Source: Christensenellaceae bacterium
GTDB lineage: Bacteria > Bacillota > Clostridia > Christensenellales > Borkfalkiaceae
NCBI GenBank assembly: GCA_045639245.1
Contig: JAZUCS010000011.1
Location: forward strand, 4,380 to 68,379
Length of the DNA: 64,000 nt
Reading direction: 5' to 3'
Shown: piece by piece, positions 6,884-62,515 of the stretch
How positions within the stretch are numbered: the stretch's first letter is position 1
Layout: each line of letters starts with the position of its first letter
Notes under the pieces: model-generated
Database searches by the model: none
Seen by the model: only the letters and a program-made list of their open reading frames with translations
Told to the model about the DNA's origin: nothing
Program-made: the position numbers and the translations under genes

Positions 6884-6893
6884 GGAGAGAATT

Positions 6894-29285: not shown

Positions 29286-29550
29286 ATAAAAAAATCCTCG
29301 GCAGAAAATCTGCCAAGGACGAATATTTTTTATCCGCGGTGCCACCTTGATTTATACCTTTTGGTATACGCTTTTAAGATACTGTCATATCCTTGACTTT
29401 TAACGGAAGCCTCCCGTCGCACCATACTAAGATTAAATCTTTTCCTTTGCGCCCTCAACGGTCCATTTGCTTGACAGTTACTAACCCGACTCTCAGCATC
29501 GCGGGCTCTCTGTGTAGTCTTTTCAAACTTTATCTCCGTTTCAACGGTTT
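29286..29550 (-). promoter_or_regulatory. T-box leader (tRNA-sensing riboswitch) with Trp UGG specifier, controlling trpB
   Basis: Minus-strand reading gives AGAGAG, then GGGUUAGUAAC (distal loop), then GCAAAUGGAC (specifier UGG at 29463-29465 followed by A). Further on is the conserved T-box AAAUCAAGGUGGCACCGCGG (29334-29353). The terminator CCUUGGCAG/CUGCCGAGG plus U7 lies at 29288-29319. Confidence 0.8.
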
Positions 29551-29600
29551 TTTAAAATATAACATTATTTATATTATTTGTCAATTATTTTAGCCTTTTT

Positions 29601-31481: not shown

Positions 31482-31557
31482 TGGCAGGGGAGACGCGACT
31501 CGAACACGCAACCGGCGGTTTTGGAGACCGCTGCTCTACCAATTGAGCCACTCCCCT
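31482..31557 (-). tRNA. trnW: tRNA-Trp (anticodon CCA), 3' CCA encoded
   Basis: Minus strand reads AGGGGAGTGGCTCAATTGGTAGAGCAGCGGTCTCCAAAACCGCCGGTTGCGTGTTCGAGTCGCGTCTCCCCTGCCA. It has a 7-bp acceptor stem, D-loop AATTGGTA, anticodon loop CUCCAAA and T-loop GTTCGAGTC. Length 76 nt. Confidence 0.92.
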
Positions 31558-38624: not shown

Positions 38625-39476
38625 ATGGAACTCAATTTTCTCCCTGCAAAGGTTTTGTATGCGCTTAAAAATTACAATATAAATTGCATATACGAAATTC
38701 GTTTAAGAGAAGGATATCCTATCAAGATAAATTATCTTGGGGATAAAAAACTATTGCTAGATGATGGTGGCAATGTGTTGGTCTGTAAAAAAGTTGATAT
38801 TGATTATATAATTGACAGCATTACTGAATGTTCGCTTTATGCTTTTAGTGAAAGGATTAAAGATGGTTATTTAACTGCAAAAAATGGCGTTAGAGTGGGA
38901 CTTGCGGGAGAATGCGTGTGTGAAGACGGTGTGGTTTTAACGATTAAAAATATTAAATCGTTAAATATAAGAATTCCTCACACTGTTTTTGGTGCTTCGG
39001 ATTGCATTTATGAAAAATTGTTTAAGGACAAGATGTATAACACCTTAATTGTGGCGCCTCCTTTTTCAGGGAAAACTACTATATTAAAGGACCTTGTAAG
39101 AAGAATAAATGCTGAGACAAGCCTTGACGTTTTGATAATTGATGAGAGGGGTGAGTTTTCTTGCGTTGTGGGGGAAAATATTGACGTAATTAGCTATGCT
39201 GAAAAACAAGCTTCCTTTCTTAGGGGTGTCAGAACACTTTCTCCAGACGTTGTAATAATGGACGAGCTGGGTGGTGTTTCAGATTTTTCTTGCGTAGAAT
39301 ACGCTTTAAGTTGTGGTGTAAAACTTATTGCTACCGTGCATGGAGACAACGTAAAAGATTTAGCCTTAAAACCATATTACAAGCAAGGGCTTTTTGATAG
39401 GTACGTTTTCTTGAATGGTGGCATTAAGAAGGGTGTGGTTAATAAAATTTTGGATGCAGAATTCAATGAGGTATAA
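38625..39476 (+). CDS. spoIIIAA: Stage III sporulation protein AA (ATPase)
   Basis: 283 aa. Walker A APPFSGKTT and Walker B VVIMDE. First gene of an eight-gene operon with spoIIIA order and sizes. Confidence 0.85.
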   Translation: MELNFLPAKVLYALKNYNINCIYEIRLREGYPIKINYLGDKKLLLDDGGNVLVCKKVDIDYIIDSITECSLYAFSERIKDGYLTAKNGVRVGLAGECVCEDGVVLTIKNIKSLNIRIPHTVFGASDCIYEKLFKDKMYNTLIVAPPFSGKTTILKDLVRRINAETSLDVLIIDERGEFSCVVGENIDVISYAEKQASFLRGVRTLSPDVVIMDELGGVSDFSCVEYALSCGVKLIATVHGDNVKDLALKPYYKQGLFDRYVFLNGGIKKGVVNKILDAEFNEV

Positions 39477-39939
39477 TATTATAATCGGTATTGTTTTGCT
39501 TGTGTTATCCCTTTTAATTGGGTGGGAATTTGCAAAAAAATACACAAAAAGGCGAATATTTTTTAATGATTTTAACTCTTTTAATCAGATTATATCTGCA
39601 GAAATTTCCTTTTCTAAGTCAACAATTCCAGAAGTGATAAGGACAAACTCTTATCAAGGGAGCGATTTTTATTTTGGGTTAAGGAACAGATATATTGATA
39701 AATTAGAAGAGCTTAAAGATATTCCATTTTTGACAGAAAGAGAAAATAATTTTTACAAGGAATACGTTCTCAATATAGGAAAGGGTGGTTCAAAGACTTG
39801 TGGGGAGTACGTTAATGGAATAAAGCAAAAAATTGCTGAAAATTTAAGTATTGCGACAAAAGAGGAAGAGAAAAACAAGCCCCTTTGTATTAAAATTGCC
39901 TTTTTAATAGGTCTTGTTGCGTTAATTTCGCTCCTGTAG
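39466..39939 (+). CDS. spoIIIAB: Stage III sporulation protein AB
   Basis: 157 aa from the ATG at 39466 (MRYNIIIGIVLLV). Has an N-terminal TM helix. Position and size fit SpoIIIAB. Confidence 0.75.
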   Translation: MRYNIIIGIVLLVLSLLIGWEFAKKYTKRRIFFNDFNSFNQIISAEISFSKSTIPEVIRTNSYQGSDFYFGLRNRYIDKLEELKDIPFLTERENNFYKEYVLNIGKGGSKTCGEYVNGIKQKIAENLSIATKEEEKNKPLCIKIAFLIGLVALISLL

Positions 39940-39946
39940 GGTAGTT

Positions 39947-40144
39947 ATGAATATTGATATAATTTTTAAAATAGCTGCAATTGGCGTGCTTATTGCTGTA
40001 ATATGTCAAATATTAAAGAAGAATGATAGGGATGATATAGCAACTATGGTTTCGCTTGTAGGGCTTATTATCGTTTTATCATTTGTTGTTAATATGATTG
40101 GCGACCTTTTTCAAAACGTAAAGGATATTTTTAATCTGTATTGA
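39947..40144 (+). CDS. spoIIIAC: Stage III sporulation protein AC
   Basis: 65 aa two-helix membrane protein in the expected operon position. Confidence 0.8.
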   Translation: MNIDIIFKIAAIGVLIAVICQILKKNDRDDIATMVSLVGLIIVLSFVVNMIGDLFQNVKDIFNLY

Positions 40145-40145
40145 T

Positions 40146-40526
40146 ATGGTAAAATTAGTCTTTCTTGCCATTATTTTCTCGGTGATTTTATTTGCCTTGA
40201 AAAACGTTAACAGTGATTTGTTTGTTCCTGCGTTAGTCGCTTGTGGGGTAATTTTTGCTTTTTATCTTCTATCCTACGTTAAGGAAGCTTTTTCGTTTAT
40301 AAATCAAGTTATAGAAATGACAGGGGTTGATTCAGAACTTTATAAAATAATATTTAAGATTGTTGGTATTTCATATCTCATAGAGTTTGGGGCGGGTACT
40401 GTAGAAGACGTTGGTTATAAAAGTATTGCAGACAAGCTTACTTTAATTGGAAAGCTAGCAATTTTTATATCATCACTTCCTGTGTTTTACGCTGTTATTA
40501 ATTTACTTGTTGGGCTCGCTAAATGA
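40146..40526 (+). CDS. spoIIIAD: Stage III sporulation protein AD
   Basis: 126 aa membrane protein. The YLIEFGAG segment and its operon position fit SpoIIIAD. Confidence 0.8.
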   Translation: MVKLVFLAIIFSVILFALKNVNSDLFVPALVACGVIFAFYLLSYVKEAFSFINQVIEMTGVDSELYKIIFKIVGISYLIEFGAGTVEDVGYKSIADKLTLIGKLAIFISSLPVFYAVINLLVGLAK

Positions 40527-41677
40527 AAAAAGTAATGATTTTAAGTTTAATTTTCCTTTTAGTTTTTGGGGTAGTGGTGGACGTTCCACGAGAAGTCTGT
40601 GCCGATACTATTGAGGAAACTATTGAAAAAGAACTGCAAGGACTTGACCTAACTATTTTAGAGAATTTTTATAATTCTATAGATGGTGGGGAGAGGGTTG
40701 AATTTTATACCTTAATTAACGGATTTATTAACGGTTCATATTCAATAAATTATGATAATGTTTTGACGCTAGTAAAAGATTCCCTCATATTAAATTTTAA
40801 AAACGTTTTAATTAGCTTGTTATCTATAGTTATCATTGTGATTATATTTAGTTTGTGTGAACAAATGAGGGGCAGGATAATGAGCGAAGGAGTTAAAAAT
40901 TTAATAAGAATCACGTGTGTTTTATCGATTGTTTTAATATTTTCAAAAGAAATCATATCGCTTTTTAAGAGTGTTAAAATCGTTATAGAAAATATATCGA
41001 AACTAAACGAGATTATGTCACCCATAATGCTTGGTTTAATAGTATCGTCAGGTGGAAATGTTACTGCATCAATTTATTCTCCCACAGTTGTTTTCTTGTC
41101 AAATGGTTTTATAAGTATAGTGCTTTATTTGTTGTTGCCGTTAATTTCAATAATAATGGTTTTTGGGGTAATGTCGTCCTTTTCAGAAAAAATAAAGCTT
41201 GGTAAATTTTCCGATTTCTTCACTTCGGTATTTAAGTGGGTGTTGGGAATTTCCGTTACCATTTCCGGACTTTTTATTACTGTCCACGGACTTAATGCAT
41301 CAGTTATTGACGGTGTTTCGATTAAAGCGGCAAAATATGCTATATCAAATTCTGTGCCGTTAATTGGTGGGTTTTTAAAAGATGGGTTTGATATTGTCAC
41401 TTCAGGTACGATTATTATAAAAAATGTGATAGGTGTAACGGGAATTATCGCATTGTTTTATCTTTTGTTAGCGCCTGTTGTTCACTTGATTGCTTATTCT
41501 CTTGCGTTTAAGCTTGTTTCTGCCGTGACTGAACCTTTTTCCGACGGTAAAATTTCATCGCTTTGTACTGTTTCGGCAAAATCTATCACCTACTTGATTA
41601 TTTGTGTTTTAGTCGTTGCTCTAATGTTTTTTGTTAACTTGATTATTTTAATGATTTCTTCAAGTGCGTTTATATAA
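40523..41677 (+). CDS. spoIIIAE: Stage III sporulation protein AE
   Basis: 384 aa polytopic membrane protein with a signal peptide. Size and position fit SpoIIIAE. Confidence 0.8.
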   Translation: MKKVMILSLIFLLVFGVVVDVPREVCADTIEETIEKELQGLDLTILENFYNSIDGGERVEFYTLINGFINGSYSINYDNVLTLVKDSLILNFKNVLISLLSIVIIVIIFSLCEQMRGRIMSEGVKNLIRITCVLSIVLIFSKEIISLFKSVKIVIENISKLNEIMSPIMLGLIVSSGGNVTASIYSPTVVFLSNGFISIVLYLLLPLISIIMVFGVMSSFSEKIKLGKFSDFFTSVFKWVLGISVTISGLFITVHGLNASVIDGVSIKAAKYAISNSVPLIGGFLKDGFDIVTSGTIIIKNVIGVTGIIALFYLLLAPVVHLIAYSLAFKLVSAVTEPFSDGKISSLCTVSAKSITYLIICVLVVALMFFVNLIILMISSSAFI

Positions 41678-41685
41678 GAGGTGTT

Positions 41686-42171
41686 ATGTGGGAATGGATT
41701 GTGAGCGTTGGGGCAGTGGTTATCGCCTCTACTTTAATAACTTTAATTGTACCGGATAATAGATTAACGGGCATAATAAGTGTTGTTCTTGCAGTAACGG
41801 TGATTTCAGTTATTGTTAAGCCTCTAAAAAGTTTTGATTTTAATACAGATTTTTCTTTTAATTATAATGAGAATGGGGTTGAAATTGATTATTCTTATGC
41901 TGAACACGTAAATTTTTTAAGATGCGAAAATCTTAAAAAAAATTGCATAGATGCTCTTAATAAAAAAGGTTATGACTGTTTAAGGGTTGATATTTCTTAT
42001 GATGAAAGGGATTTTCGTCAATTAATTATAAAAAACGTCAAACTGTTTTTTAGCAAAGAAGTTATCAATTCAAGCTTTGAGCATATAGATAATATTGACG
42101 AGGTTAGAAAGCTTGTCTCAAGTCTTATTGGAGTGGACGAAGGAGTGATAGATGTCATCATCGAAAGCTGA
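41686..42171 (+). CDS. spoIIIAF: Stage III sporulation protein AF
   Basis: 161 aa with two N-terminal TM helices and a soluble domain, in the expected operon position. Confidence 0.72.
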   Translation: MWEWIVSVGAVVIASTLITLIVPDNRLTGIISVVLAVTVISVIVKPLKSFDFNTDFSFNYNENGVEIDYSYAEHVNFLRCENLKKNCIDALNKKGYDCLRVDISYDERDFRQLIIKNVKLFFSKEVINSSFEHIDNIDEVRKLVSSLIGVDEGVIDVIIES

Positions 42172-42649
42172 GAAATTTAATATAAATTCCATTATTGAAA
42201 AAGTTAAAAAAAGCAAGATATTAAAATATGTTTTAATAGCTGTTTTGCTTATTTTATTAGTTTTGATGCTTAGCTTTAATTTAGCTGAAAAAGAGACGGT
42301 GGTAACTGAGGATTACGTTACTTCGTTAGAGAGGAGATTGGAGAATGCTCTCGCGAAAGTTGAGGGCGCAGGCAAGGTTAGTGTTGTGATAACGGTTGAC
42401 TCAGGAATGGAAACGGTGCTTGCAATGAAGACGGTCAAAACGGAAACGGCAAGTGGAGTTGAGATTGAAGAAACGCCTATTTTAGTCAATGGTAAAACGG
42501 TGACTTTGATGGAGAAATATCCAAAGGTCACAGGGGTGTTGATTGTGCTTGAGGGTACGAACTTTGCTGTTATATCAAGGATTCAAGAAGCGACTACTTC
42601 GCTTTTGGATATAAACCTTAGTCAAATAGAAATTTTGACAATGAAATAA
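42152..42649 (+). CDS. spoIIIAG: Stage III sporulation protein AG
   Basis: 165 aa. One TM helix followed by GAGKVSVVITVDSG ... YPKVTGVLIVLEG, typical of the SpoIIIAG ring-building motif. Confidence 0.78.
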   Translation: MSSSKAEKFNINSIIEKVKKSKILKYVLIAVLLILLVLMLSFNLAEKETVVTEDYVTSLERRLENALAKVEGAGKVSVVITVDSGMETVLAMKTVKTETASGVEIEETPILVNGKTVTLMEKYPKVTGVLIVLEGTNFAVISRIQEATTSLLDINLSQIEILTMK

Positions 42650-42662
42650 AAGGAGAGAATTT

Positions 42663-43139
42663 ATGACAAAAAAAAGAAAAATTATCGTTTTATCCTGCAT
42701 GATTGCATTGCTTGCCGTTACTGCAATATTCAATTTTGTGCTAACGACAGAAAGTATTGATTCAACTGAAGCATCTGCAAGTAGCGCAAGTTATTTTTCG
42801 CAATATCGCCTAGAGCGTATTACGACCAGAAATGAAGAGCTTTTACAAATTGACGATGTTATTGCTAACGCGTCAACTGATAGCGGCGAATACGCTAAAG
42901 CACTTTCATTAAAAACGGATATAGCAGTAAATACTGAAAGAGAACTACTATTAGAAAGCCTAATTAAAGCGTATGGTTTTGAAGACGTAGTTGTCGTTAT
43001 AGGTTTAGAATCGGACAGTGTAAATGTTATAGCAAAGTCGCAAGAACTTACTACAGATGATGCTGTGTTAATTTACACCGTTATCTCTGAAGAGATAAGT
43101 GTTTCACCTGAAAACGTAAAAATTATACCTATTTCTTAA
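42663..43139 (+). CDS. spoIIIAH: Stage III sporulation protein AH
   Basis: 158 aa. One TM helix, then YFSQYRLERITTRNEEL, typical of the SpoIIIAH/YscJ-like fold. Confidence 0.78.
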   Translation: MTKKRKIIVLSCMIALLAVTAIFNFVLTTESIDSTEASASSASYFSQYRLERITTRNEELLQIDDVIANASTDSGEYAKALSLKTDIAVNTERELLLESLIKAYGFEDVVVVIGLESDSVNVIAKSQELTTDDAVLIYTVISEEISVSPENVKIIPIS

Positions 43140-43203
43140 AAAATGCTATGCAAAATAAATATTTTGTGGTACAATATATAAAAATATTGATCAGAGGATA
43201 TTT

Positions 43204-43662
43204 ATGAAACGTTTTAAGAGTTACCCTGTAAAAAAACATGAAGATAAAATCGTATATGGTGACGGTATTGTAGACGGTATTGTTTTGCTTGCAATTTCTG
43301 AAGTTCCGTTCGTTGAGCTTTGTGCCGACGTGTCCTATGTGAAAAATACAAGTAAGGCAATTAAGGTTGCTTTCTCAAACGAAGGTGTAAACGTAGAGGT
43401 TAAAGTTAAAATACACTATTCTCAAAGCGTAACGGATATGGCGTTTAAGATTCAGGAGGCAATAAGGCACAATATTGAGGCGATGACTGATTATCGCGTT
43501 CAATGTGTTAACGTTATTGTAAACGACGTATTGTTTGGGGAAACTATTGAAAAGGTTGCACCAACTGAAGCCCAAGAAACGGAAGAAGGTAAGGAAACTT
43601 CGGAAGAGGTTAAACCAGTGCAGGATAAAACAGCAGAAGAACAGGCTGACAAAACGGAGTAA
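43204..43662 (+). CDS. Asp23/Gls24-family envelope stress protein
   Basis: 152 aa. The IVYGDGIVDGIVLLAISEV start is typical of Asp23, and the C-terminal tail is acidic. A candidate extended -10 (TGgTACAAT, 43167-43175) lies upstream. Confidence 0.82.
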   Translation: MKRFKSYPVKKHEDKIVYGDGIVDGIVLLAISEVPFVELCADVSYVKNTSKAIKVAFSNEGVNVEVKVKIHYSQSVTDMAFKIQEAIRHNIEAMTDYRVQCVNVIVNDVLFGETIEKVAPTEAQETEEGKETSEEVKPVQDKTAEEQADKTE

Positions 43663-43669
43663 TTTACGA

Positions 43670-44065
43670 ATGAGAAGACAAGCGAGAGAGGCAGTTTTTA
43701 AGTATATATATTCAAAGCTCTTCAATTCAAACGATGAAGGGCTTTTTGATGTTTTAGTTAAGGAACTTAGCGATGACGACAAGAGTTTTGCTAAGGCTTT
43801 GTTAACCGCAGTGGAGAAAGATCAAGAAAAAAACCTTGAGGTTATATCAAACCTCGCATACGGTTATAAACTTGAAAGACTAATTAACGTTGATAAATGC
43901 GTGCTTTTGATTGGGCTTGCAGAACTTGATAATTTTCCCGAGACAGACGTGCCTGTTGTTGTAGACGAGGCAGTTGGGATTTCTGCAAAATTTTCAACGG
44001 AGAGAAGCACTGATTTTGTAAACGGAATACTATCAGAGTATGTTAGGAGTAGAGAAAATGGCTAA
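43670..44065 (+). CDS. nusB: Transcription antitermination factor NusB
   Basis: 131 aa from the ATG at 43670 (MRRQAREAVFKYIY). The listed upstream extension is an alternative-frame reading of the Asp23 tail. Confidence 0.88.
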   Translation: MRRQAREAVFKYIYSKLFNSNDEGLFDVLVKELSDDDKSFAKALLTAVEKDQEKNLEVISNLAYGYKLERLINVDKCVLLIGLAELDNFPETDVPVVVDEAVGISAKFSTERSTDFVNGILSEYVRSRENG

Positions 44066-44915
44066 AATTATTGACGGTAAATTGATTTCTCAAAGGCTAA
44101 AAGATGGCGTTAAAGAGAGTGTTGCTGATTTTTATTCAAATTATAACCGTGAGGTATGTCTTGCGGTTATTTTAGTGGGTGAAAATCCGGCATCTCAAGT
44201 TTATGTTAAGAACAAGATAAAGGCGTGTGAATATACGGGAATAAAGTCTCTTTCGTATAAGCTTGACGAAACAACTTCAGAAGAAGAGGTGATTAACCTT
44301 GTTAAAAAATTAGGTTTAGATGCTTCAGTTGACGGAATTTTAGTTCAGCTTCCATTACCTAAACACATTAACGAGGATAGAGTGTTGTCAGAAATTCCAC
44401 CGATAAAAGACGTTGACGGCTTTACTTCAATTAACATTGGAAATCTATTGCTTGGAAAACCTTGTACCGTTTCTTGTACGCCACAAGGTATTATCACTAT
44501 GTTAAAGAGTGAAAATATTGAACTTGCAGGCAAAAGAGCCGTTGTTATAGGTAGAAGTAATATTGTTGGCAAACCCGTTTCACTTTTGTTGCTTAAGGAA
44601 AATTGCACGGTAACCGTTTGTCATAGTAGAACGGAAAACATTGCCGAAGTTTGCCGTGAGGCAGATATTGTTGTTGCCGCCCTAGGGAAGCCTTATTTTG
44701 TTACCGAAGATATGGTTAAAGATGGGGCTGTCGTTATAGACGTTGGTATTAATAGAACGGAAGACGGCTTAAAGGGTGATGTTGATTTTGATGCAGTAAG
44801 CAAAAAGGCTTCATATATTACGCCGGTGCCCGGTGGCGTTGGACCAATGACTATTGCAACGCTTATGGAAAACACCTATAAATGTGCGCTAAGGAGACAG
44901 AAGGGTGAACTTTAG
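44058..44915 (+). CDS. folD: Bifunctional methylenetetrahydrofolate dehydrogenase/cyclohydrolase
   Basis: 285 aa from the ATG at 44058 (AGGAGTAGAGAAA upstream). Contains ILVGENPASQVYV, GILVQLPLP, VIGRSNIVGKP and PVPGGVGPMT. Confidence 0.92.
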   Translation: MAKIIDGKLISQRLKDGVKESVADFYSNYNREVCLAVILVGENPASQVYVKNKIKACEYTGIKSLSYKLDETTSEEEVINLVKKLGLDASVDGILVQLPLPKHINEDRVLSEIPPIKDVDGFTSINIGNLLLGKPCTVSCTPQGIITMLKSENIELAGKRAVVIGRSNIVGKPVSLLLLKENCTVTVCHSRTENIAEVCREADIVVAALGKPYFVTEDMVKDGAVVIDVGINRTEDGLKGDVDFDAVSKKASYITPVPGGVGPMTIATLMENTYKCALRRQKGEL

Positions 44916-45777
44916 TAAAAAGTATAGCCAGTACAAAGACTATTTTGAAAAAAAATTAAACGAATTTTTAGACTCCTATCTAAGTGAAGATTGCGACTTG
45001 TATTCTGCGATTAAGTATGCCATTGTTGACGGAGGCAAGAGGGTTAGGCCCGTGTTATTATTTGCAACTGCTGAAATGCTAGGCGTGGATATTGATAAAG
45101 TTAAAAATCTTGCTTTAAGCATTGAAATGATTCACTCCTACTCTTTAGTCCATGATGACCTTCCTTGTATGGATAACGACGATTATAGGAGGGGTAAATT
45201 TTCAACGCATAAAAAGTTTGGTGAAAATATAGGCGTTTTAGCAGGGGACGGTTTGCTTAACCTTGCTTTTGAAGTTGCTCTATTAAAAGATGATTTTTGC
45301 AGTGAAGATAAGGATGCGTTAAGGTTGCTTTCCGAATATGCTGGTGCAAAAGGAATGATTAAGGGGCAAGCAAAAGACCTGTTGTGCGAAAAAAACGGTC
45401 TTGCGGGAAGAGAGGAGCTCTTTTATATTTATCAAAATAAAACTGCAAAGCTTATTGCTGCCCCCATTTTAATGGCTTCAATTATTTCCGGAGGCAAGCA
45501 TTATAACGAGTTAAAAGAATTTGCTTTCAATCTCGGTTATTTGTTTCAAATCATAGACGATATTATGGACTGTGAAAGCAGTTTTGAAACTATGGGTAAG
45601 TCCCCAAATAAGGATAAAGATTCTGATAAACTTACTTCTATTAAGATTTTTGGGCTTGACGGCGCTAAATTACTTGCTGATAAATATTACGTGGAGTCTA
45701 TAGATATTTTAAATAGAATCGAGGGGAGCGAATTTTTGAAAGAATTCACTGATTATATGCTAAAAAGACGCTCTTAA
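44905..45777 (+). CDS. ispA: Polyprenyl (farnesyl/geranylgeranyl) diphosphate synthase
   Basis: 290 aa, GTG start. First DDxxD region LVHDDLPCMDNDDYRRG and second IIDDIMD. Confidence 0.85.
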   Translation: MNFSKKYSQYKDYFEKKLNEFLDSYLSEDCDLYSAIKYAIVDGGKRVRPVLLFATAEMLGVDIDKVKNLALSIEMIHSYSLVHDDLPCMDNDDYRRGKFSTHKKFGENIGVLAGDGLLNLAFEVALLKDDFCSEDKDALRLLSEYAGAKGMIKGQAKDLLCEKNGLAGREELFYIYQNKTAKLIAAPILMASIISGGKHYNELKEFAFNLGYLFQIIDDIMDCESSFETMGKSPNKDKDSDKLTSIKIFGLDGAKLLADKYYVESIDILNRIEGSEFLKEFTDYMLKRRS

Positions 45778-45805
45778 ATATTTATTCATTATGTTTGAAT
45801 AAGTA

Positions 45806-45834
45806 TTGATATTATTCGTATTCTATGCTATTAT
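45806..45834 (+). promoter_or_regulatory. Candidate sigma-A promoter for nadK-argR-recN (TTGATA-17-TATTAT)
   Basis: TTGATA at 45806-45811, a 17-nt spacer, then TATTAT at 45829-45834. Lies 18 nt upstream of the nadK ATG region. Confidence 0.4.
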
Positions 45835-45851
45835 GGTTGTGGTGAGGGACT

Positions 45852-46673
45852 ATGAAAGTACTAATTCACGTTAATCCTGATAAGGATATAGGTGGTGTAA
45901 GCTTAAAAACGCTTATTAAAAGTCTAAAAAAACATAATATTGAATATTTGGTCGCAGGTATTGAAGATTCTGTGGAAAATGACGATTATTCTGCACTTTT
46001 TGTTATCGGTGGAGACGGGACTATTCTAAGAAGGACGGAATATGCAAACAGTAATTCTGTGCCAATAATTGGCATTAACGGTGGAAAGCTTGGCTATCTT
46101 AGTGAGTTTGAGCGTTCCGAGATTGAGGAAGCTGTTGATTTATTTGTTACAGGCAGGCTAAAAAAAGATTGCAGGGCAACCTTCTCCGTTATGCTTGACG
46201 GTAAAGAATATTTGGCGTTAAACGACGTCGTTGTTCAAAGATTGTATGCAGATAACAAAGGTATGATTATTGGTGTGCAATTCTTTATTGATGGGAACAA
46301 GATTGATACCGTTGTTGGAGACGGTGTTATCGTTGCAACGCCAACTGGTTCGACAGCTTATTCCTTATCTGCTGGTGGGGCTATTTTAACGCCAGGTATA
46401 AATGCTTTTTCAATTACGCCAATTGCCGCTCACTCTCTTGGACAGAGACCTGTTGTTTTTTCATCAGATTCAGAATGCGTGCTAAAGGTGGAGGATAATT
46501 TTAGCGCAGGGCTTTTTGTTGACGGTAAAATGATTAGGACTTTGAGTGGTGGAGAAGAAGTTTTTATTAAGAAAGCCGAGAACGATACGGTTTTTTTAAG
46601 AAGAGAAAAATCGAATTTTTACAAGAAACTTTCGGAAAAATTATTTAATAGGAATATGGGGAAAAATGACTAA
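45852..46673 (+). CDS. nadK: NAD kinase
   Basis: 273 aa. Contains the GGDGTILR motif, NDVVV and ATPTGSTAYSLSAGG. Confidence 0.9.
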   Translation: MKVLIHVNPDKDIGGVSLKTLIKSLKKHNIEYLVAGIEDSVENDDYSALFVIGGDGTILRRTEYANSNSVPIIGINGGKLGYLSEFERSEIEEAVDLFVTGRLKKDCRATFSVMLDGKEYLALNDVVVQRLYADNKGMIIGVQFFIDGNKIDTVVGDGVIVATPTGSTAYSLSAGGAILTPGINAFSITPIAAHSLGQRPVVFSSDSECVLKVEDNFSAGLFVDGKMIRTLSGGEEVFIKKAENDTVFLRREKSNFYKKLSEKLFNRNMGKND

Positions 46674-47109
46674 GAAAGATAGGCTGAATTATATTAAAAG
46701 GGTAATATTTGAAGAGGAAATTTCCACTCAAGAAGAGCTTACCGACGTTTTGAATAAAGCAGGTTTTGACGTTTCTCAAGCGACCGTTTCTCGCGACATT
46801 AACGAGCTTAACCTTGTAAAAGTTGAGGGTGTTAATAAAAAGTTTAGGTATCATTTACCAGAAATTGCTGGTGAAACTCCTCAAAAAATTATTGATTTAT
46901 TTAAGAACGTTACAACTTCTATTGATTGTGCAAATAATCTTATCGTTGTTAAAACGCTAGCCGGTAATGCAGGTACTGCAGGAATGGCTATTGACCACAT
47001 GAAAATTCCTAGCGTTCTTGGAACAATTGCAGGTGACGACGTATTATTAATTATAGCAAAAACAAACGGTGACGCAGAAGTTATCGTTAAAAGTTTAAGG
47101 ACCATGTAA
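46666..47109 (+). CDS. argR: Arginine repressor
   Basis: 147 aa. Winged helix with TQEELTDVLNKAGFDVSQATVSRDI, and a C-terminal GTIAGDDVLLI oligomerisation and Arg-binding segment. Confidence 0.88.
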   Translation: MTKKDRLNYIKRVIFEEEISTQEELTDVLNKAGFDVSQATVSRDINELNLVKVEGVNKKFRYHLPEIAGETPQKIIDLFKNVTTSIDCANNLIVVKTLAGNAGTAGMAIDHMKIPSVLGTIAGDDVLLIIAKTNGDAEVIVKSLRTM

Positions 47110-48806
47110 TGCTTAAAAAAATTTCCGTTAAAAATTTCGCGTTAATAGATTGTGCTGAAATTATATTTACCGAGGGCTTTAACGTTTTGTCTGGTGAAAC
47201 TGGTTCGGGTAAGTCTATCGTGCTAGAGGCTCTTAATTTTGTTTTGGGTGCTAAAGCCGATAAAAACCTTATAAGAAGTGGCGAGACTGAATGTTTGGTC
47301 ACTGCCGAGTTTGATTTGTCTTCTGCTTCGTGGGCACAAGAGGTCTATTCTGAACTGGATTATGAGTTTGACGACCTTTTAATTATTTCTAGAAAATTTA
47401 ACGAGGCAGGTAAGAGCACGATAAAAATTAACGGCAACTCTGCAAACGTATCTATTCTAAAGAAGTTTACCCTCCATTTAGTTGATGTTCACGGGCAAAG
47501 TGAACATTTTTCCTTACTTTCGCAATCAAATCAAATGGCGCTGCTCGATAAATTCGGTGGTGAAGAACTCCTTAAGGTCAAGGGTGAAATATCAAAAAGC
47601 TTGGTTGAATATAAGGTCGTTCGAGAGGAGATTGATATACTCGGTGGAGAAGAGAGTCAGCGCCTAATTAGGCTTGACGTCTTATCGTATCAAATTAACG
47701 AGATTGAAAAAGCTGCAATTTACGAGGGTGAGGAAGAAAACCTTTTATCAATTAAAGATAAGTTAAAACATCAAGAAAAGATTGTAAACGCTCTTTCTTC
47801 CATTAAATATTCTTTGTGTAGCGAGGGTGGTGCTTCTGACGTTGTTTCTAGTGCCGTTAAGGAGGCTTCTTTAATTTCTTCCTTTGGGGATGAGTATGCA
47901 AGTCTTTATGATAGGCTATCTTCTGTTTATTCTGAAATTGACGATATAGCCTCAACTTCTGAAAATTTATTAGAGGCTTTTGAATTTTCTGAGTATAATC
48001 TTGAAGAAATCGAAGAAAGACTAGATTTGATTAAGAAAATCAAGAAAAAATACGGAGACAATTTTGCAGAAATTACTGCGTTTTTAGATAATGCATTAAA
48101 AGAAAGAGATAGACTTGAGAACTTTTCTACGCTGTTTGAAAATTTAATTAATAAAGAAAAAACGTTAAAAGTAGATTTGTATTCTAAATATCTTTCCTTA
48201 AGAAAAATTAGAGAGAAAACTTCCGAAAAGCTATCAAAAAACATTGCTTGTGAGTTGAAAGAGCTTGGAATGAAGGGCGCTAAATTTTCGGTGCAGTTTT
48301 CCGAAGTGCCGAATATTGATGATTGCAGGTTTGACGGTATGTCGTTTGATAGCGTACAGTTTTTGTTCTCTGCAAATATTGGCGAACCTCTAAAGCCTTT
48401 GTCAACCGTTATTAGTGGTGGTGAAATGAGTAGGCTTATGCTTGCAGTTAAGGTTCAAACGGCTAAGTGCAATGATATTTCTACCTTTGTTTTTGACGAG
48501 ATAGACGCTGGTATTAGTGGTAACGTGGCAAAAATCGTTGGCGAAAAGCTTGTGAAAATTTCTAAAGACGTTCAAGTGATTTCTATTTCGCATTTACCAC
48601 AAATTGTTTCGTTTGGAGATAATAACTTACTTATTTATAAAACTGTTGAAAACAATAATTCCTTTACAAGGGTTAAAGCATTAACTAAAGACGGAAAGGT
48701 TGAGGAAATTTCTAGGCTTATCGGTGGAGATATGCATTCTAAATCGGCAAGGGAGCATTCGCTTGGAATTATTGAGCAAGCCGATGCATTCAAGGGTGCT
48801 TTATAA
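47109..48806 (+). CDS. recN: DNA repair protein RecN
   Basis: 565 aa. Walker A SGETGSGKS, a long coiled-coil middle, C-terminal signature SGGEMSRLMLA and Walker B VFDEIDAGISG. Confidence 0.92.
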   Translation: MLKKISVKNFALIDCAEIIFTEGFNVLSGETGSGKSIVLEALNFVLGAKADKNLIRSGETECLVTAEFDLSSASWAQEVYSELDYEFDDLLIISRKFNEAGKSTIKINGNSANVSILKKFTLHLVDVHGQSEHFSLLSQSNQMALLDKFGGEELLKVKGEISKSLVEYKVVREEIDILGGEESQRLIRLDVLSYQINEIEKAAIYEGEEENLLSIKDKLKHQEKIVNALSSIKYSLCSEGGASDVVSSAVKEASLISSFGDEYASLYDRLSSVYSEIDDIASTSENLLEAFEFSEYNLEEIEERLDLIKKIKKKYGDNFAEITAFLDNALKERDRLENFSTLFENLINKEKTLKVDLYSKYLSLRKIREKTSEKLSKNIACELKELGMKGAKFSVQFSEVPNIDDCRFDGMSFDSVQFLFSANIGEPLKPLSTVISGGEMSRLMLAVKVQTAKCNDISTFVFDEIDAGISGNVAKIVGEKLVKISKDVQVISISHLPQIVSFGDNNLLIYKTVENNNSFTRVKALTKDGKVEEISRLIGGDMHSKSAREHSLGIIEQADAFKGAL

Positions 48807-48837
48807 ATAGTGTGTAAAAGCTTAATGTAGCAACAGA

Positions 48838-48870
48838 CAAAAAAGTCAAATTTTTATTTGGCTTTTTTTG
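48838..48870 (+). terminator. Rho-independent terminator after recN
   Basis: AAAAGTCAAA (48841-48850) pairs with TTTGGCTTTT (48857-48866) with one G-U pair, followed by a T-run. Confidence 0.6.
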
Positions 48871-48917
48871 TATATTTTTTTTCTTTATTCTCAAAATAAC
48901 TTTTATCGGTGCATAGA

Positions 48918-49895
48918 ATGAGAAAAAAGTTTTTATTAGTTATTGGAATATTTGTAGTGTCGCTATTTACTGGCAATATATATAATGTTAAGGCTGACAA
49001 CATAAAATATTACTTAGGAGGCATGTCTGCAGGTATTGAGCTTGTTACGAGGGGCGCTTCAATTGTCGGTGTTGGCGAGGTTGTTACGAGGGAAGGGGCT
49101 GTTAGTCCGTCAAAAAAGGCAGGGGTTATCCCTGGGGACATTATTCTTAGTATTGATTCGTTTGAAGTAAACGACGCTGTAGACGTGGAATTTGCCCTTA
49201 AAAATGGCAAGGAAAAACACTTGGCTATCTTGAGGGGCGAAGAAATTATTAATTTAATTATTACTCCCGCTTTAGACCTTTCTGGAAATTACAGACTAGG
49301 TGTTTTTATTAAAAATGGGATAAATGGAATAGGTACGATTACTTATTTTTCATCAAATAATAGGTTTGCGTCACTTGGACATCCTGTATTTGTTAACGAG
49401 AAAATAGCTGAAGTAAAAAAAGGCACGCTATATACTTGTAGTATAACTGGTTATACGCAAGGAGAATATGGCAAACCGGGTGAATTAAAAGGCGTTTTCT
49501 TAAAAGAAAAAAAGCTTGGTGTGATTGATAAAAATGCAGACAACGGCATTTTTGGTAATTTGAATAAAGGCTGTGAGTGTTTGGGGCTAATGGAGATTGA
49601 ATTGGGTGAAGGGAGAATAGGTGAAGCTAGTATTTACACGACGATTGATGGTGTAGCTCCAAAAGAATACTCTATATCAATTGTTAAAACGGATACAAGA
49701 GCTGGTAATCTTAAGAATTTTGTTATAAAAATTAACGATAAGCGCCTTATTGAAACGACTGGTGGAATTGTGCAGGGAATGAGTGGTAGTCCAATTGTGC
49801 AAGACGGCAAACTTATTGGTGCAATTACACACGTTTTTACAAACGACCCACTTCGTGGGTTTGGCATATCGATAAGCAATATGATTGTTAGTTAA
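48918..49895 (+). CDS. spoIVB: SpoIVB peptidase (S55) with PDZ domain
   Basis: About 325 aa; the ATG at 48918 is preferred and the GTG at 48909 is possible. Signal anchor, PDZ segment (GVIPGDIILSID) and catalytic region GIVQGMSGSPI. Confidence 0.85.
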   Translation: MRKKFLLVIGIFVVSLFTGNIYNVKADNIKYYLGGMSAGIELVTRGASIVGVGEVVTREGAVSPSKKAGVIPGDIILSIDSFEVNDAVDVEFALKNGKEKHLAILRGEEIINLIITPALDLSGNYRLGVFIKNGINGIGTITYFSSNNRFASLGHPVFVNEKIAEVKKGTLYTCSITGYTQGEYGKPGELKGVFLKEKKLGVIDKNADNGIFGNLNKGCECLGLMEIELGEGRIGEASIYTTIDGVAPKEYSISIVKTDTRAGNLKNFVIKINDKRLIETTGGIVQGMSGSPIVQDGKLIGAITHVFTNDPLRGFGISISNMIVS

Positions 49896-57615: not shown

Positions 57616-58953
57616 TTACTGTTTTGCAGGTTTGAATTTACCAGTCTTGTATAAAAGCAATTCGATAACAAAATAAAGTATAATATTTATTGAGGCGACA
57701 ATCGGTACGACTAGGTAAGATAAAAGGTTGAATTTTACCGATAAATCAACGCTTATCACAAAATTAAGTGCAAATATTAAAAGTAAAAGGTTAAACACAG
57801 CAATGCATGCATTTAATATTCCGTCAAACGTGATAGTCTTAAATACCGATTTGTTTTTGTCTTTTAAGTAAATTATTGCAAGTGTAAAAAAGGAAATTAC
57901 TGTAAGCGATAATGCTACGATTGTAGGAATTGAAGAGGTGATTGTAATGTTAGCTGCAAATTGCAATAAGAGTATTTCAATAAGTGGAATAGCTAAAAAG
58001 CATAAAATACTAAAGAACCTAAGCTTGTTTAGATATAGGTTTCCAATACTTTTAACGGAAGATTTAGAAGAAACTCTAATTCTATAGCCTTCTACAGCGT
58101 ATTTTCCAACTAAGTCAGAAAAATCGGCCTTTCCAACGTATACAGCCTTTTGTGAATATGAAGTAGTTTTTATCGTTTCGTTAAATTTTGCAACTTTTGG
58201 TGTCTCAACTGGTTTTTGCTCAATTTTTTTATCTACAACTTCACTAGGTGTAGCTTTTCCTAAATCGGTAATCTCAATTTTTTGTTTTTCTTCCTTGACG
58301 GGCAGAACGGGTTTTTCTGCATTTTTAATTAGTCCGTTTAGTATGTTTCTAAAATTAATTTCCTTTTTGTCCTCAGCTTTTTCATCGGAGTCTAGCTGGG
58401 GAGAGGTCGTTTCCATTTTAGCTGTTTGTTCAGCTTTAATATCAGTTTCAGACTCTGATACTACTGAAGGTTTAATATCTTCTATAATTTGAAGAGTGGG
58501 AGCTTGAGATGGCTGATTAATTATCGGTGTTTCTAAAACTGTTTTATCAGTATTGATTTCGCTAGTGCTTTCTTGAGGTTTTTCGTCATTATTATGTGTG
58601 ATATAAACGTGTGGAGTATATTCACAACCCATAAGTTTATCAATGATTACACGAGAATACGACCAGTTAGACAAATTATCTTTAACGAATTCATTGCCAA
58701 GCTCAGTAATTTTGAAAAACTTTCTACGGCCATCGTCACAATCAAAGCGATAAGAGGTTACGTACTTAAGATTTTCCAACCTTTTTAACGAACTGTACAG
58801 TGTAGCCTGATTAATTTGGTACTTTTTTTCGCTTTTTTCTTCAATAAAATCGCTAATTTGCTGAGCAAACTTATCAGAACCGGTTAAACTATATAGAATG
58901 ATTGTATCAATATGACCACGTATAAGGTCACTGCTGATTTTGTTTTCTTCCAA
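57616..58953 (-). CDS. PadR-family winged-helix regulator fused to a long low-complexity linker and a C-terminal multi-pass membrane domain
   Basis: 445 aa, TTG start 7 nt after GGAGA. The N-terminal LIRGHIDTIILYSL ... ATLYSSLKRLENLKYV ... RRKFFKITELG is PadR-like. Residues ~130-260 are rich in E/K/P/T/Q. The last ~130 aa form about four hydrophobic helices. Confidence 0.7.
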   Translation of the reverse strand: MEENKISSDLIRGHIDTIILYSLTGSDKFAQQISDFIEEKSEKKYQINQATLYSSLKRLENLKYVTSYRFDCDDGRRKFFKITELGNEFVKDNLSNWSYSRVIIDKLMGCEYTPHVYITHNNDEKPQESTSEINTDKTVLETPIINQPSQAPTLQIIEDIKPSVVSESETDIKAEQTAKMETTSPQLDSDEKAEDKKEINFRNILNGLIKNAEKPVLPVKEEKQKIEITDLGKATPSEVVDKKIEQKPVETPKVAKFNETIKTTSYSQKAVYVGKADFSDLVGKYAVEGYRIRVSSKSSVKSIGNLYLNKLRFFSILCFLAIPLIEILLLQFAANITITSSIPTIVALSLTVISFFTLAIIYLKDKNKSVFKTITFDGILNACIAVFNLLLLIFALNFVISVDLSVKFNLLSYLVVPIVASINIILYFVIELLLYKTGKFKPAKQ

Positions 58954-59264: not shown

Positions 59265-60326
59265 ATGAAGAAAAGCTATTATGAAGAAAGAGATTTGTCT
59301 TGTATAAAGAGAACTGAAGAAATTATCGACGCTCTCCCTTATTACGTTCAAGATTTTTTCGTTGGTGTTGAACCAAGGACTTCTTCTCTTACAAGACTTA
59401 ATTATGCTTATGATTTGAGGGTTTTCTATAACTTTTTATCTCAAAAAGTATTTAAAAATAAGGATTTTTGTGATATAGAGCTTGCAGATTTAGCTAAACT
59501 TGATGCAACGGATTTCGAATACTTCTTAAGTTACCTTAGTAGATATGAAATAAACGGAAAATTTGAGCGTTGTACGGAAACGGGTAAAGCTAGAAAACTC
59601 TCTACCCTGCGCGCTTTTTATAAGTATTTTTTTAACAAAAATATGCTTCCTGCCAATACCCCATCAAAGGTTTCTATGCCTAAAATTCACGAAAAAGAAA
59701 TAGTTAGGCTGGAATCCAACGAAAAAGTTGATGAAATTGGCGATATGCTCTATGTTGTTAAAAACGGTGCTGGGCTTACTAAGAAACAAAAAGCATTTCA
59801 CGCATCTACTTCTGTTAGAGATACTGCTATCGTTACCCTATTTTTGGGTACTGGTATTCGTATAAGCGAGCTTGTTGGTTTGAATATTGAAGATTTTGAT
59901 TTTAAAACTAATAGCTTTGTCGTAACGAGAAAAGGTGGAAATCGTGCTGTTTTATATTATAATGACGAGGTTTTAGCTTGTTTAACCGAGTATTATAATC
60001 ATAGAACCTCAGATAAAAAGGTCCCCTCAGGTGAAAATGCATTCTTTTTATCCCTTCAAAATAAGAGAATTAGCACGAGAACAGTGCAAGAATTAGTAAA
60101 AAAATATGCGCAAATTATATCCCCATTAAAGAAGATTACCCCACATAAGTTAAGAAGTACTTTTGGTACGAATTTGTATAGGCAAACTGGAGATATTTAC
60201 GTTGTTGCTGATTGTTTAGGGCATAAAGACGTTAACACTACAAAGCGTCATTACGCCGCTATAACCGAGGATATTAGAAAGAAAGCTGGTCTTTCACTTA
60301 ACATCTCCCCTAACGATGAAAAATAG
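59265..60326 (+). CDS. Tyrosine site-specific recombinase (XerC/XerD-like integrase family)
   Basis: 353 aa. Core-binding N-domain, then the catalytic region: ARKLSTLRAF, TGIRISELVGL (Arg), HKLRSTFGT (H-x-x-R), LGHKDVNTTKRHYA (His and the Tyr nucleophile). Confidence 0.85.
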   Translation: MKKSYYEERDLSCIKRTEEIIDALPYYVQDFFVGVEPRTSSLTRLNYAYDLRVFYNFLSQKVFKNKDFCDIELADLAKLDATDFEYFLSYLSRYEINGKFERCTETGKARKLSTLRAFYKYFFNKNMLPANTPSKVSMPKIHEKEIVRLESNEKVDEIGDMLYVVKNGAGLTKKQKAFHASTSVRDTAIVTLFLGTGIRISELVGLNIEDFDFKTNSFVVTRKGGNRAVLYYNDEVLACLTEYYNHRTSDKKVPSGENAFFLSLQNKRISTRTVQELVKKYAQIISPLKKITPHKLRSTFGTNLYRQTGDIYVVADCLGHKDVNTTKRHYAAITEDIRKKAGLSLNISPNDEK

Positions 60327-60382: not shown

Positions 60383-60520
60383 TTATTCAATAATTTTTGT
60401 AATTTTAATAATCTCGTAATTTTTGTCTGGTTCAATACATTTGCCACAGCTGTCACATATTTTTCTTGGGTCTAAATCACAAGTGTCGTCATCTAAAATT
60501 ATATCTTTTTCTTTATCCAT
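60383..60520 (-). CDS. Small acidic Cys-rich protein (45 aa), divergent from lexA
   Basis: The ATG at 60520 lies 5 nt after AAGGAGAT; the listed 87-aa form has no RBS. Sequence MDKEKDIILDDDTCDLDPRKICDSCGKCIEPDKNYEIIKITKIIE, with Cys spacing C-x8-C-x2-C-x2-C. Confidence 0.4.
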   Translation of the reverse strand: MDKEKDIILDDDTCDLDPRKICDSCGKCIEPDKNYEIIKITKIIE

Positions 60521-60604
60521 AGTATCTCCTTTTTTATATTTTATCATTTCCAAATAAAAAAGTAAACATTTTATCAAATATTTAATAAAAGTATCTGTAA
60601 TATT

Positions 60605-60633
60605 TTGACATTTATCCTTTTTGTTATTAAAAT
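60605..60633 (+). promoter_or_regulatory. Candidate sigma-A promoter (TTGACA-17-TAAAAT) ending 6 nt before the lexA ATG
   Basis: TTGACA at 60605-60610, a 17-nt spacer, TAAAAT at 60628-60633. The ATG is at 60640 and no Shine-Dalgarno lies between. Confidence 0.45.
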
Positions 60634-60639
60634 AAAAAT

Positions 60640-61260
60640 ATGCCAAGATTAACTACTTCAGAGCAAGTTTTAGAAAAAATGGAAAGAGTGTATGATTTTA
60701 TACACGATTACATAAAAAAGCACGACTACTCGCCAACTATAAGGGAGATTTGCGCTGAATGCAATATTCCTTCTACTGGTAGTGCCTTTTATTACGTTCA
60801 TAAACTGATAGAACAAGGTAGGCTTGAACAATCAACTCTCTTTACCCGTGTTTTTACTCCAAAATATTATAGTCGCACTTTTATTAAAGCGCCTATTATT
60901 AATAAAATAAAGGCAGAAAATACTTCTATTTTTGACGAAGTTAATATTGAAGGTGTTTGCCCTCTCCCTTCGGAATTTTATGGTGAAAAGGGTTGTTTTT
61001 CCTTTAAAATTAAAGATGATTATATGGCTAACTGTTCTCTAAAAAAAGGAGACGTTGCTATATGTAAAAAATTTTCCAACTTTTCTAATGGTGAACTCGC
61101 GGTGGTTGTGCTAAATGGTGAAGTGTTTGCAAGAAAGGTGTATAATATAGATTGTAGACTTCTTGCCAGAACCGACTATGATGGAGAGGTTATTGAAATG
61201 TATATTGGTTCAGACAGCGATATTATAGGTAAAGTTATTGGAATAATTAGAAAATTTTAA
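60640..61260 (+). CDS. lexA: LexA-like repressor (wHTH plus S24-like domain) with substituted cleavage-site and catalytic residues
   Basis: 206 aa. The N-terminal YSPTIREICAECNIPSTGSAFYYVHKLIEQGRL matches the LexA wHTH. The C-terminal domain aligns with LexA (PLP, GD, NGE.AVV, GKVIG..R), but reads KAE for the AG site and KDDYM for GDSM. Confidence 0.8.
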   Translation: MPRLTTSEQVLEKMERVYDFIHDYIKKHDYSPTIREICAECNIPSTGSAFYYVHKLIEQGRLEQSTLFTRVFTPKYYSRTFIKAPIINKIKAENTSIFDEVNIEGVCPLPSEFYGEKGCFSFKIKDDYMANCSLKKGDVAICKKFSNFSNGELAVVVLNGEVFARKVYNIDCRLLARTDYDGEVIEMYIGSDSDIIGKVIGIIRKF

Positions 61261-61303: not shown

Positions 61304-62515
61304 TTACAAATCTAAATTTTTTAAGGCGATTTTGCAATGCTCGTAGGTTATTCCACCTTGGAAGTACGCAATGTAAGGTTCTCTAATTGGGGCGTCTGCA
61401 GAGAGCTCGATTGACGAGCCTTGAACAAAACAACCTGCAGCCATAATAACTTCATCGGTGTATCCAGGCATTTCCCACGGCATAACGGAAACGTTACTGT
61501 CCACCGGTGAATTTTTCTGAATGTTTTGTATAAACTTAATGAGCTTTTCCTTGTCTCCAAATTCTATTTCAGTAACGATATCGGTGGGAATCTGATATGC
61601 TTTAGGAGAAGTTTTATATCCCAATTCTGATAAGACCAAGCAATAAAGCATTGCTCCTTTCATAGCTTGCAAAACAACGTGAGGTGCGAGGAATAGACCT
61701 TGATAAAAATATTGATAACCGTTTGTGTATGAACCAACCTCGCTTCCGATAGACGGTGCAGTTAGTCTATTGAACACTAGGTCAACGTACTTCTTGTCCC
61801 CTGCAACGTATCCTCCGGTTGGCGCAATGCCACCTCCTGGATTTTTGATTAGTGAACCAGCCATTAGGTTTACACCTACGTCAGTTGGTTCTTTTTTTTC
61901 TATAAATTCGCCGTAGCAATTATCTAGCATTATAATTCCGTCAAAACCATTACTTCTAAGGAAGATAACGGCATTTTCAATATCGTCAATAGAAAGGGCG
62001 TTTCTCCAAGAATATCCCCTAGACCTTTGCAAGTAAATCATCTTGGGCATAACATTATTTCCTAGGTGCTCTTTTAATGATTCATAGTCAATTTTATCAT
62101 CTTTTAACGGTATAGAATCAAAAGAAATATTATAATCTTCTAAAGAGCCTGTGCCTTTTCCGTACAAAACGTCAGTGAGAGTGTCATAGGGCGTTCCCGT
62201 TATACTTAGGACTCTGTCTGAAGGTCTTAAAACGCCGTACAAAGCAAGGGAAATTGCGTGTGTGCCCGAGACAATGTTGGGCGAACAAATGGCTGCCTCA
62301 GAGCCAAAAACGTCAGCAAAAACTTGGTTTAAGGTTTCCCTTCCCTCGTCGCCGTATCCGTAACCTGTTGTTCCAACAAAATGTCTAAGCGCAATCTTGT
62401 TTTTCTTAAAGGCGTTTAATACCTTTTCTTGATTGAATAATGCAATATCTTCAAGGATTGAAAATTTATCTTGAAGTTTTCTTTCTGCTTGATTAATAAC
62501 GTTAACGTCTATCAT
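61304..62515 (-). CDS. PLP-dependent methionine gamma-lyase-family protein (YnbB / aluminium-resistance-protein type)
   Basis: 403 aa. The N-terminal FNQEKVLNAFKKNKIALRHFVGTTGYGYGDEGRETL is characteristic of this family, which commonly follows miaA in Firmicutes. Confidence 0.8.
   Translation of the reverse strand: MIDVNVINQAERKLQDKFSILEDIALFNQEKVLNAFKKNKIALRHFVGTTGYGYGDEGRETLNQVFADVFGSEAAICSPNIVSGTHAISLALYGVLRPSDRVLSITGTPYDTLTDVLYGKGTGSLEDYNISFDSIPLKDDKIDYESLKEHLGNNVMPKMIYLQRSRGYSWRNALSIDDIENAVIFLRSNGFDGIIMLDNCYGEFIEKKEPTDVGVNLMAGSLIKNPGGGIAPTGGYVAGDKKYVDLVFNRLTAPSIGSEVGSYTNGYQYFYQGLFLAPHVVLQAMKGAMLYCLVLSELGYKTSPKAYQIPTDIVTEIEFGDKEKLIKFIQNIQKNSPVDSNVSVMPWEMPGYTDEVIMAAGCFVQGSSIELSADAPIREPYIAYFQGGITYEHCKIALKNLDL

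Follow-up and report, generated by a model that had tools for sequence, protein, structure and literature searches.

The gene at positions 60640-61260 (+ strand) of the window, that is, the whole 64-kb stretch of Christensenellaceae DNA analysed here, encodes a LexA-derived protein in which all three determinants of self-cleavage (the scissile Ala-Gly bond, the Ser nucleophile and the Lys general base) are replaced. The two-domain fold of LexA is kept. The gene is probably the ancestral, positional lexA of the lineage turned into a pseudo-protease, most likely a RecA-independent regulator of new targets. The features of the gene and its product are as follows.

60640..61260, + strand: lexA-derived gene, 206 aa plus stop (Pfam, NCBIfam, PDB sequence matches, AlphaFold2, Foldseek)
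About residues 8-64 of the 60640..61260 (+) protein, N-terminal: LexA-type winged helix-turn-helix (HTH)
About residues 85-203 of the same protein: S24-fold C-terminal domain without catalytic residues
60913..60921, + strand: former cleavage site Ala92-Glu93-Asn94 (GCA GAA AAT), replacing Ala-Gly (E. coli A84-G85); from alignments
61015..61026, + strand: former nucleophile motif Asp126-Asp127-Tyr128-Met129, replacing G-x-S119-M, with Tyr128 encoded by TAT at 61021-61023; from alignments
61132..61137, + strand: former general-base column (E. coli K156), now Arg165 (AGA, 61132-61134), followed by Lys166; from alignments

Loss of the self-cleavage determinants in a LexA fold

The product is recognised as LexA by several kinds of comparison. 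Peptidase_S24 (PF00717) matches residues 85-200 with 42.8 bits (cut-off 23.3) and is covered over profile positions 1-116 of 116, and LexA_DNA_bind (PF01726) matches residues 15-63 with 28.3 bits (gathering cut-off 23.7). The best NCBIfam model for the 206-aa protein is the lexA equivalog TIGR00498, which aligns end to end with 75.9 bits. The cut-off of this model, 110.95 bits, is missed by the window protein and by its whole clade (range 76-91 bits), whereas the LexA of the closest canonical sister locus, L003 of genome JAFTKC01, reaches 197.8 bits. The best sequence matches in the PDB are all LexA proteins, led by that of T. maritima (3k2z, 2e-12) and followed by those of M. tuberculosis, P. 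aeruginosa and E. coli. AlphaFold2, run on an alignment of 81 sequences, gives a confident model (mean predicted local distance difference test score 89.7) with helices at residues 8-28, 34-40 and 46-58, plus a wing. The top Foldseek matches of this model are full-length LexA structures, and the C-terminal domain alone gives template modelling scores of 0.7-0.8. Since the Pfam, PDB sequence, AlphaFold2 and Foldseek results agree, the protein is assigned to the LexA fold.

The clade to which the protein belongs has six members. Only four close homologues, sharing 54-73% identity, came out of a search of 5.8 billion proteins. When 1.84 billion cluster representatives were searched exhaustively with a profile, one cluster stood at 379 bits and the next match at 122 bits; the matches from 122 bits downward are ordinary LexAs. 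The sixth member, at locus L002 (genome JAZONF01), was reached through its ynbB neighbour, the only way to reach it because its cleavage loop is deleted. Scans of species-representative genomes and of Joint Genome Institute (JGI) metagenomes with clade-motif patterns found no further members, and beyond the clade the closest sequences are canonical LexAs of Clostridia. The clade is thus small; judged from the names of the metagenome-assembled genomes (MAGs), it is of herbivore-gut origin.

Ala-Gly, Ser and Lys are missing from all six members. The window protein was aligned by HMMER to 3k2z and by MAFFT with the E. coli and B. subtilis LexAs and about 30-35 syntenic relatives. Its cleavage-site loop carries a one-residue insertion, so that Ala-Gly is not restorable in any register. 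The site reads (A/V/T)-E-N in five members; in L002 five residues of the preceding loop are deleted and Asn alone is left. The former cleavage loop, K-I-x-x-E-N-T-x-I-F-D-E, is strongly conserved in five of the six. At the Ser column three members have Tyr and three Leu, as against Ser in 19 of 19 close canonical relatives, and the Gly of the nucleophile motif is changed to Asp in all six. The K156 column holds Arg throughout the clade and Lys in all 19 of the close canonical relatives. The residue after it is Lys in four members and Arg in two (canonical LexAs have Arg); a Lys at this place gives no rescue of catalysis, because the Ser and the scissile bond are both absent.

The initial annotation had called the gene a LexA orthologue by position and sequence, and this is borne out by its slot between a xer-like gene and ynbB-miaA-mutL (see below) and by the Pfam and PDB matches. 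Its placing of Ala92-Glu93 at the scissile bond and of Tyr128, within DDYM, at the nucleophile was confirmed in both the HMMER and the MAFFT alignments, in which Ser and Ala-Gly stay out of register, and its codon coordinates are correct. Its statement that the Lys region is retained did not hold: the K156 column is Arg165 in this protein and Arg in all six, and the position of Lys166 is Arg in two of them. The inability to undergo RecA-stimulated self-cleavage, which it had predicted, is supported and strengthened by the loss of all three determinants, by purifying selection on the clade and by sister genomes that have a canonical LexA with a Cheo-like operator at the same chromosomal position.

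Locus, promoter and rate of evolution

The neighbourhood of the gene contains the following features.

59265..60326, + strand: xer-like tyrosine recombinase (Phage_integrase family), conserved upstream neighbour
60383..60520, - strand: small Cys-rich open reading frame (ORF), 45 aa from the ATG at 60520 (MDKEKD...CDSCGKC...), divergent from the lexA-derived gene
60538..60566, - strand: divergent promoter TTTACT-N17-TAAAAT, TG-extended, which drives the small ORF
60605..60633, + strand: sigma-70-type promoter TTGACA-N17-TAAAAT (11/12 match), ending 6 nt before the ATG, without a Shine-Dalgarno (SD) sequence
61304..62515, - strand: ynbB-like gene (Met_gamma_lyase family), convergent with the lexA-derived gene, used as synteny anchor

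With YnbB as the anchor, 67 loci were fetched, the closest from MAGs labelled Christensenellaceae or Clostridia. A LexA homologue directly adjoins ynbB in 36 of these. The only exceptions to a canonical sequence (A-G, G-x-S-M and V-K-R) among the 36 are the window clade and L059, from an unrelated MAG of Bacillota. All clade members share the gene order xer-like, small ORF, lexA-derived gene, ynbB, miaA, mutL, mutS and miaB, and a canonical LexA fills the same slot in about 30 Christensenellales-like relatives (MAGs). From this common order and the canonical LexA in the slot, the window gene is taken as the positional lexA orthologue and not as a stray paralogue. In one related MAG the canonical lexA (L005, CAJOMP010000020.1) and ynbB (L078, CAJOMP010000001.1) are on different contigs; relocation of lexA thus occurs in the group, and its linkage to ynbB is not universal.

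The small Cys-rich ORF (MDKEKDIILDDDTCDLDPRKICDSCGKCIEP...) is provided with an extended -10 promoter of its own and with a good SD sequence. No Pfam or PHROG match was obtained for its 45-aa product. A small gene is called at this position in L001, L069, L070 and L071, and a small ORF is found there in canonical relatives too. On the other side of the xer-like gene, and conserved beside it, lies a gene for a 445-aa protein (57616-58953, - strand) with an N-terminal PadR-type HTH (Pfam match on the L001 orthologue), a long low-complexity linker and a multi-pass hydrophobic C-terminal region. Its product is an unusual membrane-anchored PadR-like regulator.

The mRNA of the lexA-derived gene is predicted from its promoter to be leaderless. 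The layout TTGAC(A/T)-N17-TAnnnT-N6/7-ATG without SD sequence is present at 24 of 36 lexA genes, among them those of the six clade members and of every Christensenellales-like relative; the loci concerned lie among L001-L043 and L069-L071, in addition to 60605-60642 of the window. In Clostridia further removed, lexA has a leader and an SD sequence. Canonical relatives carry a palindrome, C(A/G)AAC-N4-GTTTG, fused to or overlapping the -35 element TTGACA (GTTTGACA), and this is the sole such box in their loci. No Cheo-like box was found upstream of any of the six clade genes, and the promoter is retained. Since the box is gone from the clade loci while the promoter is kept, the gene's own operator is considered erased; conservation of the promoter speaks for continued expression of the gene. 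The pattern CRAAC-N4-GTTYG has no match in the 64-kb window, which is uninformative alone, with 0.28 matches expected by chance.

The initial annotation was thus right that the upstream region is free of a GAAC-N4-GTTC-type box. In place of such a box it had noted a recurring motif, A(T/C)ATTTTATCA, which proved to be promoter sequence in AT-rich DNA and was rejected as an operator. Copy 1, ATATTTTATCA (60536-60546; minus strand TGATAAAAT), is the TG-extended -10 element of the divergent promoter of the small ORF and is conserved also in relatives with canonical LexA. Copy 2 (60566-60576) overlaps the -35 element of the same promoter, and the rest of the clade does not conserve it. Over the whole window the motif shows no enrichment, with 12 occurrences at up to one mismatch against 8.1 expected.

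The protein has evolved at an unusual rate. Among canonical relatives the identity of LexA runs about 1:1 with that of YnbB (against L003, 60-69% for LexA and 70-74% for YnbB). Between the clade and L003, YnbB is 77-80% identical and LexA only 34-41%, as against about 75% predicted by the neighbouring gene. The C-terminal domain is hardest hit (31-39% identity vs 71-76% in canonical pairs); the N-terminal, DNA-binding domain has 35-38% identity vs 51-62%. Between the clade and the canonical group 22 positions are fixed differently, the catalytic ones included, and K44P, A47G and Y50F (E. coli positions 38, 41 and 44) lie in or beside the recognition helix. All six ORFs are intact, at 201-208 aa, and the alignment of the five database members has 69 invariant columns. 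The ratio of nonsynonymous to synonymous substitution (dN/dS) within the clade is 0.11-0.31 in all 15 pairs, these being rough values as dS is near saturation. The gene is under purifying selection, and its history is a burst of substitution followed by renewed constraint, not decay.

Proposed function, rival explanations and known systems

As a RecA-independent regulator, the protein would still dimerise through its C-terminal domain and bind DNA through its winged HTH; the C-terminal strand IIGKVIGIIRKF is conserved between it and canonical LexA. RecA*-stimulated self-cleavage would no longer inactivate it, and autoregulation through a Cheo box would no longer operate. The three substitutions at the recognition helix and the low N-terminal identity suggest that operator specificity has changed, and different DNA is probably recognised, because the recognition helix and the wing are both altered. 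The protein would then most likely be a transcription factor acting on a new target set independently of RecA, and the classical LexA-gated SOS switch would be lost or rewired in the lineage.

Several points weigh against this reading. DNA binding, dimerisation and non-cleavability are drawn from sequence and a predicted monomer only. An alignment of the six clade intergenic regions (that of L070 being only about 66 nt) found conservation of the two promoters only, and no operator or target. The dN/dS values carry the roughness noted above. A second, canonical lexA may lie in the genome beyond the 64 kb of the window; in the L005/L078 genome lexA does lie away from ynbB. At the general-base position the T. 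maritima LexA (3k2z) reads Ala-Lys and not Lys-Arg in the HMMER alignment, so a Lys one residue further on may not be meaningless in every LexA.

Had the lineage lost its SOS response, the gene could be a relic decaying towards a functionless pseudogene. The large substitution burst, strongest in the catalytic domain, the lost operator, the score below the equivalog cut-off and the additional loss of part of the cleavage loop in L002 would all fit such a course. However, six species-level lineages keep an intact ORF at low dN/dS, the strong -35 and -10 elements and their exact leaderless spacing are conserved, and the 69 invariant positions and the confident predicted fold do not suit a decaying gene. 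The dN/dS values and the conserved promoter led to rejection of the pseudogene reading, which is given little credence. A canonical, cleavable LexA elsewhere in the genome, running the SOS response and freeing the copy at the ancestral locus for a specialised role, is unlikely, though it is the rival to be taken most seriously. Lineages with two LexA proteins are known, the visible part of the genome is 64 kb, and the MAG of L005 and L078 has its lexA on a different contig from ynbB. Against it, no other S24/LexA ORF is present in the window or in the loci L001, L002, L069, L070 and L071, and the 64-kb window is free of Cheo-like boxes. The L002 genome (JAZONF01) is also absent from the best 80 of 178 relatives of the closest canonical LexA, a weak point that comes from a pattern-based search of species-representative genomes with that LexA as query.

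The protein might also be inactivated after damage by some other route, by another protease or by a redox or ligand switch acting through its cysteines. The five database members share five invariant cysteines, namely the C38-x-x-C41 pair in helix 2 of the HTH, C119, C142 and C172; the former cleavage loop is strongly conserved outside L002, and Neisseria is known to have an oxidation-modulated LexA-like repressor. However, such an inactivation has no direct support, L003, the canonical sister, has the CxxC pair and C119 as well, and L002 is without the conserved loop and C172, which makes this explanation a very improbable one. A CI-type S24 repressor of a phage or mobile element was suggested by the upstream neighbour in the Phage_integrase family and by weak PHROG matches to UmuD-like and repressor families. 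It is effectively refuted by synteny: the xer-like gene, the small ORF and ynbB-miaA-mutL-mutS form a conserved housekeeping order shared by dozens of genomes, in which canonical LexA fills the slot, and the LexA matches are much stronger than the phage-family ones. The gene is thus not in a prophage context; this reading, which the initial annotation had named among the possible refutations of its own, was rejected.

The protein could also be a repressor bound permanently to the old SOS regulon. The laboratory Ind- mutants of E. coli LexA, G85D, S119A and K156A (PDB 1jhf, 1jhh and 1jhe), are structurally intact repressors that undergo no cleavage. The window protein is changed at the same three functional positions. 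Unlike in these mutants, its changes are natural, fixed and combined, and they are accompanied by operator loss and divergence of the DNA-binding domain, for which reasons it is unlikely to be a mere permanent repressor of the old regulon. Permanent repression is also less likely because a non-inducible state is costly and the only old operator open to inspection is lost.

The protein shares with LexA/DinR of the B. subtilis type (TIGR00498; MEROPS S24) the fold, length, domain order and chromosomal slot in related Clostridia, and canonical orthologues of the same order have its promoter architecture. Unlike canonical Gram-positive LexA/DinR, it is without the scissile bond and the Ser-Lys dyad, and its promoter is without a Cheo box. 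Among known proteins, LexA of Synechocystis sp. PCC 6803 (sll1626) comes closest. It has Gly-Gly for Ala-Gly and Asp for Ser, its promoter is free of an SOS box, and DNA damage does not induce it. It is thought to be unable to self-cleave and to regulate non-SOS genes; only two of the three residues are reported as lost (PMC1524924, PMC3091678, PMC4759255, PMC7567884). Both proteins have the LexA architecture, replaced Ala-Gly and Ser residues and a promoter free of an SOS box. In contrast to the cyanobacterial protein, the window protein also has Arg for Lys, its other substitutions are different (AG to AE(N), S to Y/L), and its host is an anaerobic, probably spore-forming bacterium of animal guts. 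Its origin is independent, as it is nearest to canonical LexAs of Christensenellales, and the likeness is convergent.

Other degenerate LexA-like proteins were found in uncultured Bacillota. Among the best profile matches, at least eight further cluster representatives (P0033, P0046, P0053, P0062, P0066, P0068, P0077 and P0084) have lost Ala-Gly and show Arg at the Lys position; a ninth without Ala-Gly, P0030, has Thr there. The LexA adjoining ynbB in L059 (7238-7837, - strand) likewise is without Ala-Gly and has Arg in the Lys column. Several of these proteins have Asp for the Gly before Ser (D-x-S-M). They resemble the window protein in the loss of Ala-Gly and the gain of Arg, and differ from it in that most keep Ser. 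Each is nearest to a different canonical LexA, not to the others or to the window clade, and the inactivations therefore look like independent events. The sequences suggest that LexA inactivation has been repeated and partly convergent in Bacillota; as the profile was made with dead-clade sequences and favours degenerate ones, they yield no frequency. A wider proposal is offered tentatively and is more doubtful than not by a good measure. Bacillota would repeatedly convert a single LexA to a RecA-independent regulator, by Ala-Gly loss, Gly to Asp and Lys to Arg; this clade would be without a cleavable LexA or LexA-gated SOS response genome-wide, and a new regulon would respond to a different signal, possibly cysteine redox including the CxxC pair of the HTH.

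Remainder of the window and significance

No recA, uvrA, uvrB or second S24 protein is encoded in the 64-kb window. The only SOS gene in it is recN (47109-48806), which is without a box. It lies in a block (38625-49895) with the order of sporulation and housekeeping genes typical of Firmicutes, namely the spoIIIA operon, asp23-like, folD, ispA, NAD kinase, recN and spoIVB. Because the window holds this sporulation block, the organism is probably a spore-former. A T-box leader (105 bits; 29312-29553, - strand) is located upstream of a gene for a PALP-family enzyme (27971-29188, - strand), and a tRNA-Trp gene (31482-31557, - strand) is found near it. Positions 1-28000 are occupied by a large plant-polysaccharide degradation cluster, with GH94, two polysaccharide deacetylases, two PGA_cap-like proteins, an SGNH esterase, two GH28 proteins, an AraC regulator and ABC permeases. 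The cluster includes two tandem overlapping ORFs of the Abhydrolase_7/glucuronyl-esterase-like type (5831-6883 and 6771-7937). Large proteins without Pfam match in this region include those encoded at 12587-14533 (648 aa) and 16933-20667 (1244 aa).

The window clade is a new, well-delimited case of a phenomenon already known from one cyanobacterium. LexA inactivation occurs also outside the cyanobacteria, and probably several times in Bacillota. Such proteins would easily be labelled 'LexA repressor' in annotation, although their sequences predict that they are unable to work as one. The self-cleavage of LexA is the switch of the SOS response, which drives mutagenesis, prophage induction and antibiotic tolerance. 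The hosts are uncultured, and the immediate use of the finding is comparative and, by way of synthesised protein, biochemical. Related gut Clostridia provide a matched natural comparison at one and the same locus, canonical LexA with its operator against a dead, fast-evolved LexA without operator, and this comparison shows how the SOS switch is dismantled or repurposed.

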